A DNA stretch of 64,000 nucleotides. Origin: Escherichia coli. GTDB taxonomy: Bacteria; Pseudomonadota; Gammaproteobacteria; Enterobacterales; Enterobacteriaceae. The notes under the pieces were generated by a model, which made no database searches, was not told where the DNA came from, and saw only the letters and a program-made list of their open reading frames with translations. Where the stretch lies: the NCBI RefSeq assembly GCF_003334305.1, contig NZ_QOWS01000002.1. One strand, given 5' to 3'. The position numbers and the translations under genes are program-made. Of this stretch, positions 53,980 through 54,089 are shown piece by piece (positions within the stretch are counted from its first letter, which is position 1; each line of letters starts with the position of its first letter).

Positions 53980-54089
53980 GTTATATGCCTTTATTGTCAC
54001 AGATTTTATTTTCTGTTGGGCCATTGCATTGCCACTGATTTTCCAACATATAAAAAGACAAGCCCGAACAGTCGTCCGGGCTTTTTTTT
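53980..54089 (+). ncRNA. micC: Hfq-binding small RNA MicC
   Basis: GUUAUAUGCCUUUAUUGUCACAGAUUUUAUUUUCUGUUGGGCCAUUGCAUUGCCACUGAUUUUCCAACAUAUAAAAAGACAAGCCCGAACAGUCGUCCGGGCUUUUUUUUU matches MicC as I remember it; sits in the ompN/ydbK spacer with its own terminator. Confidence 0.85.

Follow-up and report, generated by a model that had tools for sequence, protein, structure and literature searches.

The window analysed here, a stretch of 64,000 nucleotides of Escherichia coli DNA, almost certainly carries the chromosomal micC gene at positions 53980–54090 of the plus strand, complete with its own promoter and terminator, and the RNA that it encodes would act as an Hfq-dependent antisense repressor of ompC. 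Nothing in the sequence spoke against this reading. MicC, formerly called IS063, is an RNA known since 2004. Judged by its sequence, the copy described here is an already known gene in a known context, identical to the reference.

The whole window was scanned with Rfam 15 at the curated thresholds, and three matches were obtained, one of which was MicC. The match to RF00121 (MicC) lies at 53977–54097 (+) and scored 125.0 bits (gathering score 90; E-value 2.3e-19); it covers model positions 1–123 of 123 and is not truncated. No competing Rfam family was found at the locus, even when a permissive scan was carried out at E ≤ 0.05. The nucleotide sequence of 53980–54090 (+), GTTATATGCCTTTATTGTCACAGATTTTATTTTCTGTTGGGCCATTGCATTGCCACTGATTTTCCAACATATAAAAAGACAAGCCCGAACAGTCGTCCGGGCTTTTTTTTT, is 100% identical over 111 nt to E. 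coli K-12 micC (b4427), which is annotated in MG1655 at 1437121–1437231 (111 nt) between ompN and ydbK. The match is far beyond chance. The Rfam score above the gathering threshold and the identity to K-12 bear out the initial annotation, which had recognized a full-length MicC in the ompN/ydbK spacer and had named an Rfam scan as the way to check it. The span then proposed was 53980–54089. Its start is exactly that of the K-12 annotation, but its end is one T short and falls inside the run of nine T residues at 54082–54090. The 3′-ends within such T-runs are naturally heterogeneous, and the length of MicC (109–111 nt) is set by the point in the U-run where the 3′-end falls. Substitutions in the target-pairing region and a disrupted terminator were looked for and neither is present; the 22-nt 5′ region, the hairpin and the nine T residues that follow it are intact.

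The genes on both sides are those expected from K-12. The quiescent porin gene ompN (52619–53752, − strand, 377 amino acids) was identified from its open reading frame, its NCBIfam porin match (the best one being the OmpC/porin subfamily, 594 bits) and the RefSeq annotation "porin OmpN". The gene adjoins micC, as had been said at the outset, and is divergent from it, the start codon of ompN and the micC +1 being 227 bp apart. On the other side, the convergent ydbK/nifJ gene (54119–57643, − strand) codes for a pyruvate:flavodoxin/ferredoxin oxidoreductase of 1174 amino acids (TIGR02176, 1631 bits; RefSeq), and its stop codon is located 28 nt past the end of the T-run. The order ompN, micC, ydbK is the same in K-12, RM10042 and A7. 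An alignment of the entire ompN–ydbK spacer (53753–54118, 366 bp) with that of K-12 MG1655 showed two substitutions only, both outside the RNA: one at 53796, in the ompN leader, and another one at 53959 (T for G), which corresponds to position −21 of micC and lies in the promoter spacer.

The ompN–ydbK spacer is present in 5413 of the 5426 complete E. coli genomes. The 111-nt MicC sequence is at least 99% identical in 3709 of the 5426 and 95–99% identical in another 1200 (4909 at 95% or above). A second allele of the spacer, in the 80–90% identity range (88–89%), was found in about 498 genomes (about 9% of complete E. coli). In the isolate AF14 (L040:1501-1860), the MicC of this divergent allele lacks 6 nt and is substituted at many positions in its centre, at the central stem-loop, and its nucleotides 1–22, the −10 hexamer and the terminator are unchanged. 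The ompN gene of AF14 is truncated by IS1. In another isolate, EM18-18-42 (L041:2290-3084), an IS1 element has taken the place of the beginning of ompN and of the spacer together with the 5′ half of micC; all that is left of the spacer is its final 84 bp, equivalent to 54035–54118 of the window. This is a natural loss of micC.

Losses such as that in EM18-18-42, and the lack of a spacer match in 13 of the 5426 genomes, could be taken as a sign that the locus in this strain is a decaying or silent relic, MicC-like in sequence and non-functional. The quiescence of ompN, the silencing of the micC–ompN spacer by H-NS (PMC5745476) and the fact that MicC went undetected in several conditions, among them late-log and stationary phase (bioRxiv 10.1101/2024.06.20.599902), point in the same direction; MicC is weakly expressed in many laboratory conditions. 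Nonetheless, we consider a relic very improbable. The gene has zero substitutions with respect to the functional K-12 gene, and the variation among genomes fits purifying selection, with the seed and the terminator fixed and the centre covarying. Furthermore, clinical isolates express micC to differing extents (PMC7177473), and its deletion has phenotypes in a clinical strain: in the ExPEC UTI89 the deletion resulted in increased OmpC and fitness defects, and sensitivity to methyl viologen was reported for the micC mutant (bioRxiv 10.64898/2026.07.27.741068).

The distribution of micC beyond E. coli was assessed by scanning GTDB, one genome per species, with 19 nt of the seed as the pattern. 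Thirty of the 34 loci found are true MicC, and they belong to Escherichia, Citrobacter, Salmonella, Superficieibacter, Pseudocitrobacter and two enterobacterial MAGs. The other four, from unrelated phyla (Izemoplasma, Clostridia, Chloroflexi), have no MicC-like continuation and were set aside as chance matches. In the alignment of the 30 sequences the centre of MicC differs greatly, both in its sequence and in its length, and the 5′-end and the terminator are constant, the identity of the seed in the 29 other genomes being partly by construction, as 19 of its 22 nt were the search pattern. The support that the divergent E. coli allele gives to the seed is independent of this because the allele was found by megablast with the whole spacer and not by the seed search. 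When the OmpN and YdbK proteins of the window were used in tblastn searches, ydbK was found next to micC wherever the retrieved DNA extended far enough on that flank. The opposite flank carries an ompN-like porin gene in the majority of loci, but not in the two from Salmonella.

Among the matches listed, micC is unannotated in all the E. coli RefSeq genomes other than K-12, and K-12 MG1655 carries an ncRNA annotation. The missing RefSeq/PGAP annotation reflects annotation practice and does not speak for absence of the gene. As a discovery the copy described here matters little; its practical value is in annotation, since an exact 5′-end recovered from sequence alone provides the correct annotation where RefSeq/PGAP leaves micC out.

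The RNA can be divided into segments that differ in their conservation. The 5′ target-pairing ("seed") region, GUUAUAUGCCUUUAUUGUCACA, occupies 53980–54001 (+); it is identical to that of K-12 and is the most conserved part of the Rfam consensus, where it appears in upper case. The central stem-loop (54015–54047, + strand), in which GUUGGG (54015–54020) is paired with UCCAAC (54042–54047), corresponds to helix 2 in the structure given by Rfam. In the 30-sequence alignment (columns 39–44/68–73), four of the six pairs of this helix have changes on both sides that preserve the pairing. The covariation score was 0.088, compared with 0.057 ± 0.007 for shuffled alignments (0 of 500 as high) and 0.040 or less for the slid controls, a modest support given that the aligned sequences share ancestry and that the structure itself came from Rfam. 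When the whole Rfam structure was laid on the same alignment, 95.1% of the cells were paired versus 37–52% with the partners slid, and none of 500 shuffles reached 95.1%. Compensatory changes were present in five pairs overall, four of them in the central helix.

This pattern of conservation also bears on whether the region encodes a small protein instead of, or besides, a regulatory RNA. Mechanical open reading frames of 26–59 amino acids do overlap the region on both strands, such as those at 54016–54102 (+), with 28 amino acids and a TTG start, and at 53944–54024 (−), with 26 amino acids and an ATG start. However, these frames are short, their starts are mostly other than ATG, and none has an evident ribosome-binding context. 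They are not kept intact across the indels between alleles and genera: the divergent E. coli allele has the 6-nt deletion and scattered substitutions, and in other genera indels of variable length fall in this very part. No such protein is annotated in K-12, and what is conserved is RNA structure and not codons. A coding function has, in our estimation, hardly any chance of being correct, and we regard the region as the gene for MicC RNA.

An A/U-rich single-stranded stretch, AUAUAAAAAGAC, can be read from the sequence at 54048–54059 (+), immediately before the terminator. By comparison with the general architecture of Hfq-dependent small RNAs, this stretch is probably an Hfq contact. The 3′ module as a whole (A/U-rich stretch, hairpin and long U-tail) would correspond to the usual Hfq-binding architecture. 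MicC binds the proximal face of Hfq, which speeds its annealing more than 250-fold (PMC4911921).

The complementarity between MicC and its target was analysed with the ompC leader of K-12, as the ompC gene is located outside the window; 5352 complete E. coli genomes carry this leader with at least 99% identity. Nucleotides 1–15 of MicC form 15 contiguous Watson–Crick pairs with positions −29 to −15 of the ompC leader, and the pairing stops two bases short of the GAGGG Shine–Dalgarno sequence. Six further pairs are formed between MicC nucleotides 16–21 and ompC positions −46 to −41. The duplex between the first 40 nt of MicC and the ompC leader had an energy of −32.0 kcal/mol, compared with −18.6 ± 3.0 kcal/mol for shuffled sequences, only one in 1000 of which was as good. 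With the first 30 nt of MicC, the value for ompC was −26.5 kcal/mol against a mean of −13.0 kcal/mol over 57 translation-start regions of the window.

Candidate targets within the window were sought by folding MicC nucleotides 1–30 against positions −80 to +40 of the 57 annotated genes. The best candidate was zntB (−19.3 kcal/mol), with a duplex rich in G·U pairs. It was rejected because 109 of 2000 shuffles were equally good, which is the level expected by chance for the top of 57 genes. The ompN leader contains, at 53773–53784 (−), a degenerate copy of the MicC site of ompC, AAGGCAAATAAA, with 2 mismatches in 12 and at a distance from the start codon comparable to that of the ompC site. This degenerate site is probably a consequence of the two porin leaders being paralogous. 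The duplex that MicC forms with the ompN leader was equalled by 102 of 1000 shuffles, and 12-mer matches to the target site within the window numbered 4, with 4.6 expected by chance. With both the duplex and the 12-mer count at chance level, regulation of ompN by MicC was rejected as unsupported. An ompN–lacZ fusion showed no effect of hfq (PMC5745476).

Taken together with the published biology, these features suggest the following mechanism. Transcription of micC would start at a promoter of its own, with a weak consensus, run divergently from ompN and stop at the gene's own Rho-independent terminator, and the resulting RNA of about 110 nt would be a trans-acting antisense regulator that depends on Hfq. 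Its single-stranded nucleotides 1–22 would pair with the 5′ leader of ompC immediately upstream of the Shine–Dalgarno sequence, and the duplex would block binding of the 30S subunit, so that less of the major porin OmpC is made. The identity, structure, conservation, synteny and target complementarity that enter this proposal come from the present analysis, and the transcription, the Hfq dependence and the repression of OmpC come from the literature. MicC has been described as a 109-nt, Hfq-associated RNA encoded opposite ompN; the duplex by which it represses OmpC is about 22 bp long, is located close to the start codon and blocks 30S binding (PMC5745476). Since MicC sets the levels of OmpC, it affects the permeability of the outer membrane to beta-lactams, serum resistance and host colonization, and its applied interest comes through OmpC (PMC5745476, PMC7177473, bioRxiv 10.64898/2026.07.27.741068).

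The Rho-independent terminator of micC spans 54060–54090 (+), as judged from folding and conservation. It consists of a stem (54060–54069/54074–54083) with an A·C mismatch at 54067/54076, an AGUC loop and the T-run at 54082–54090. The plus-strand hairpin has a folding energy of −15.2 kcal/mol (z −4.56), a value that none of 200 shuffles equalled. A terminator belonging to MicC itself, which the initial annotation had also claimed, is thus found intact, with nine T residues after the hairpin. Across the 30 genomes the stem is invariant save for the pair 54067/54076, and a T-run of 7–10 residues is always present. The A·C combination at this pair occurs only in the window, as in K-12, and in one other Escherichia (L033); all the others have A–U.

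A second suggestion made before this analysis was that the hairpin might serve as a terminator for ydbK too, on the opposite strand. The evidence on this point is divided, and it also determines how much weight should be given to an explanation in which the conserved element is mainly the intrinsic (bidirectional) terminator of ydbK and the MicC match is secondary. The hairpin follows the stop codon of ydbK at a distance of 35 nt, and the pattern scan found no other terminator-like site in between. On the minus strand it is more stable than on the plus strand (−18.6 versus −15.2 kcal/mol) because a G·U pair takes the place of the A·C mismatch. The tail on this strand, UUGUCUUUUU, is U-rich in E. 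coli, and the pattern scan flagged a minus-strand terminator with the tail GTCTTTTTAT. The stability of the hairpin, its detection by the scan and its position 35 nt past the ydbK stop codon make some termination of ydbK plausible.

The tail of the minus-strand hairpin is, however, interrupted (UUGUCUUUUUAU), and the U-tract is not conserved outside Escherichia: Citrobacter, Salmonella and Superficieibacter have the non-U sequences GUCAAUUUAU or GUCAUAAAUA instead. The T-run of the plus strand, by contrast, does not vary. A ydbK terminator cannot explain the 80 nt upstream of the hairpin either, with their invariant 5′-end and covarying helix. In addition, ydbK and ompN were described as co-expressed, as an operon under SoxS control, by Fabrega et al. 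2012, according to the citation of that work in PMC6176095. Co-expression of the two genes implies that the hairpin is read through on the minus strand, and termination would then be leaky at best. A phrase search of the literature and the Term-seq supplements of PMC7815308 gave no mapped 3′-ends for the ydbK side, and these supplements mention neither micC nor ydbK. We therefore judge it doubtful, though worth weighing seriously, that the element is mainly a ydbK terminator. The suggestion of dual use is partly supported, by a stable minus-strand hairpin close to the ydbK stop codon, and is weakened by the interrupted, unconserved tail and the reported operon. A partial, additional termination of ydbK is possible and compatible with the explanation that we prefer, namely that the element is the 3′-end of micC.

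The same arrangement raises another question. As ydbK and ompN are on the same strand and micC lies between them on the opposite one, an RNA reading through the imperfect minus-strand terminator from ydbK, as the reported SoxS-dependent co-expression implies, would be perfectly complementary to all of MicC, and its transcription would collide with that of micC. We consider it unlikely that such read-through antagonizes MicC as an antisense sponge or by transcriptional interference, although the gene arrangement permits this. If this were the case, induction of ydbK by oxidative stress, or its induction in stationary phase, would couple redox stress to the amount of OmpC, and antagonism between MicC and ydbK might be related to the methyl viologen sensitivity of the micC mutant mentioned above (bioRxiv 10.64898/2026.07.27.741068).

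At the other end of the gene, the hexamer TATTCT at 53968–53973 (+) is probably the micC −10 element. It covers positions −12 to −7 counted from the annotated 5′-end of K-12 and is conserved in most of 29 upstream sequences. These sequences, the 90 nt that precede the +1 in 29 genomes of five or more genera, were aligned, and the alignment revealed a near-invariant block of 20 bp, ATACAAAATAAAAATTATAC, at −50 to −31 (53930–53949, + strand). The block is conserved in Escherichia, Citrobacter, Salmonella, Superficieibacter and Pseudocitrobacter, and the spacer that flanks it varies freely. It includes an A-tract and a candidate −35 hexamer, TTATAC (53944–53949), which is poor and is separated by 18 bp from the −10. 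These 18 bp vary freely between alleles and genera and contain the difference from K-12 at 53959. Two other conserved upstream blocks were found at 53890–53900 (GAAATGATAAT) and 53907–53914 (GGTGAATG), with variable sequence between them.

The 20-bp block is a candidate UP element, H-NS site or regulator binding site, and all three blocks are candidate regulator sites for the divergent micC and ompN promoters. We know of no direct activator of micC, and the block at −50 to −31 is the obvious place to look for a direct regulator. The regulation described for micC is limited: its expression is induced by beta-lactams and by sigma-E depletion, an effect that is probably indirect, and is repressed by H-NS (PMC5745476). 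The micC promoter escaped a simple scan for the sigma-70 consensus because its −35 is poor, and the terminator was found by the pattern scan on the minus strand only, as the A·C mismatch on the plus strand breaks the stem rule of the scan. Both misses are limitations of the tools and carry no biological result.

The window contains other small RNA loci. FnrS (RF01796) was found full length at 49049–49166 (+) (135 bits; gathering score 60), between zntB and ynaL/dbpA, which is its known position in K-12; the fnr gene is in the same window at 38694–39446 (−). McaS/IsrA (RF00115), also full length, is located at 45576–45671 (−), between abgR and smrA (117.6 bits; gathering score 42). A match to naRNA4/CssrE at 24028–24093 (−), between ompG and ycjW, was below the threshold (39.9 bits against 59.5; E-value 0.0013). 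The naRNA4 RNA derives from a REP element, and the match is probably a REP copy. Bases 1–50000 of the window are identical to E. coli strain A7 (NZ_CP028767.1), and 39001–64000 match at 100%. RefSeq annotates in A7 two short pseudogene fragments, an NAD-dependent dehydratase at 31844–31981 (−) and an epoxyqueuosine reductase QueH at 34107–34199 (+). At 50933–52478, ttcA is intact (311 amino acids) with uspF directly next to it, and the Rac prophage is absent from the strain. In K-12 this prophage is inserted between dbpA and uspF, and a leftover ttcC pseudogene adjoins uspF.

The features described here can be compared with three known systems. MicF (RF00033) has a different sequence from MicC and a different target, ompF, and the Rfam scans showed no match to it at the micC locus. 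Its regulators are OmpR, SoxS and MarA, unlike those of MicC. The divergent arrangement of micF and ompC is seen in the K-12 sequence. Like MicC, MicF is an Hfq-dependent antisense RNA of about 100 nt encoded divergently from a porin gene, and it represses another porin through its 5′-end near the ribosome-binding site (PMC5745476). The MicC of Salmonella is closer: its 22 nt at the 5′-end are the same as those of the MicC in the window (loci L018 and L030), and the two Salmonella micC loci retrieved have no ompN homologue beside them. To our knowledge, ompD is not a core gene of E. coli. The 5′-end of the Salmonella RNA has an additional target inside the ompD coding sequence, where pairing leads to RNase E-dependent decay instead of a block of initiation, and it anneals with the assistance of Hfq as in E. 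coli (PMC4911921). The closest system is K-12 MicC (RF00121, b4427), with which the RNA, the flanking genes and their orientations, the pairing region, the helix, the terminator and the complementarity to ompC all agree, the only differences being the flanking substitutions at 53959 and 53796.
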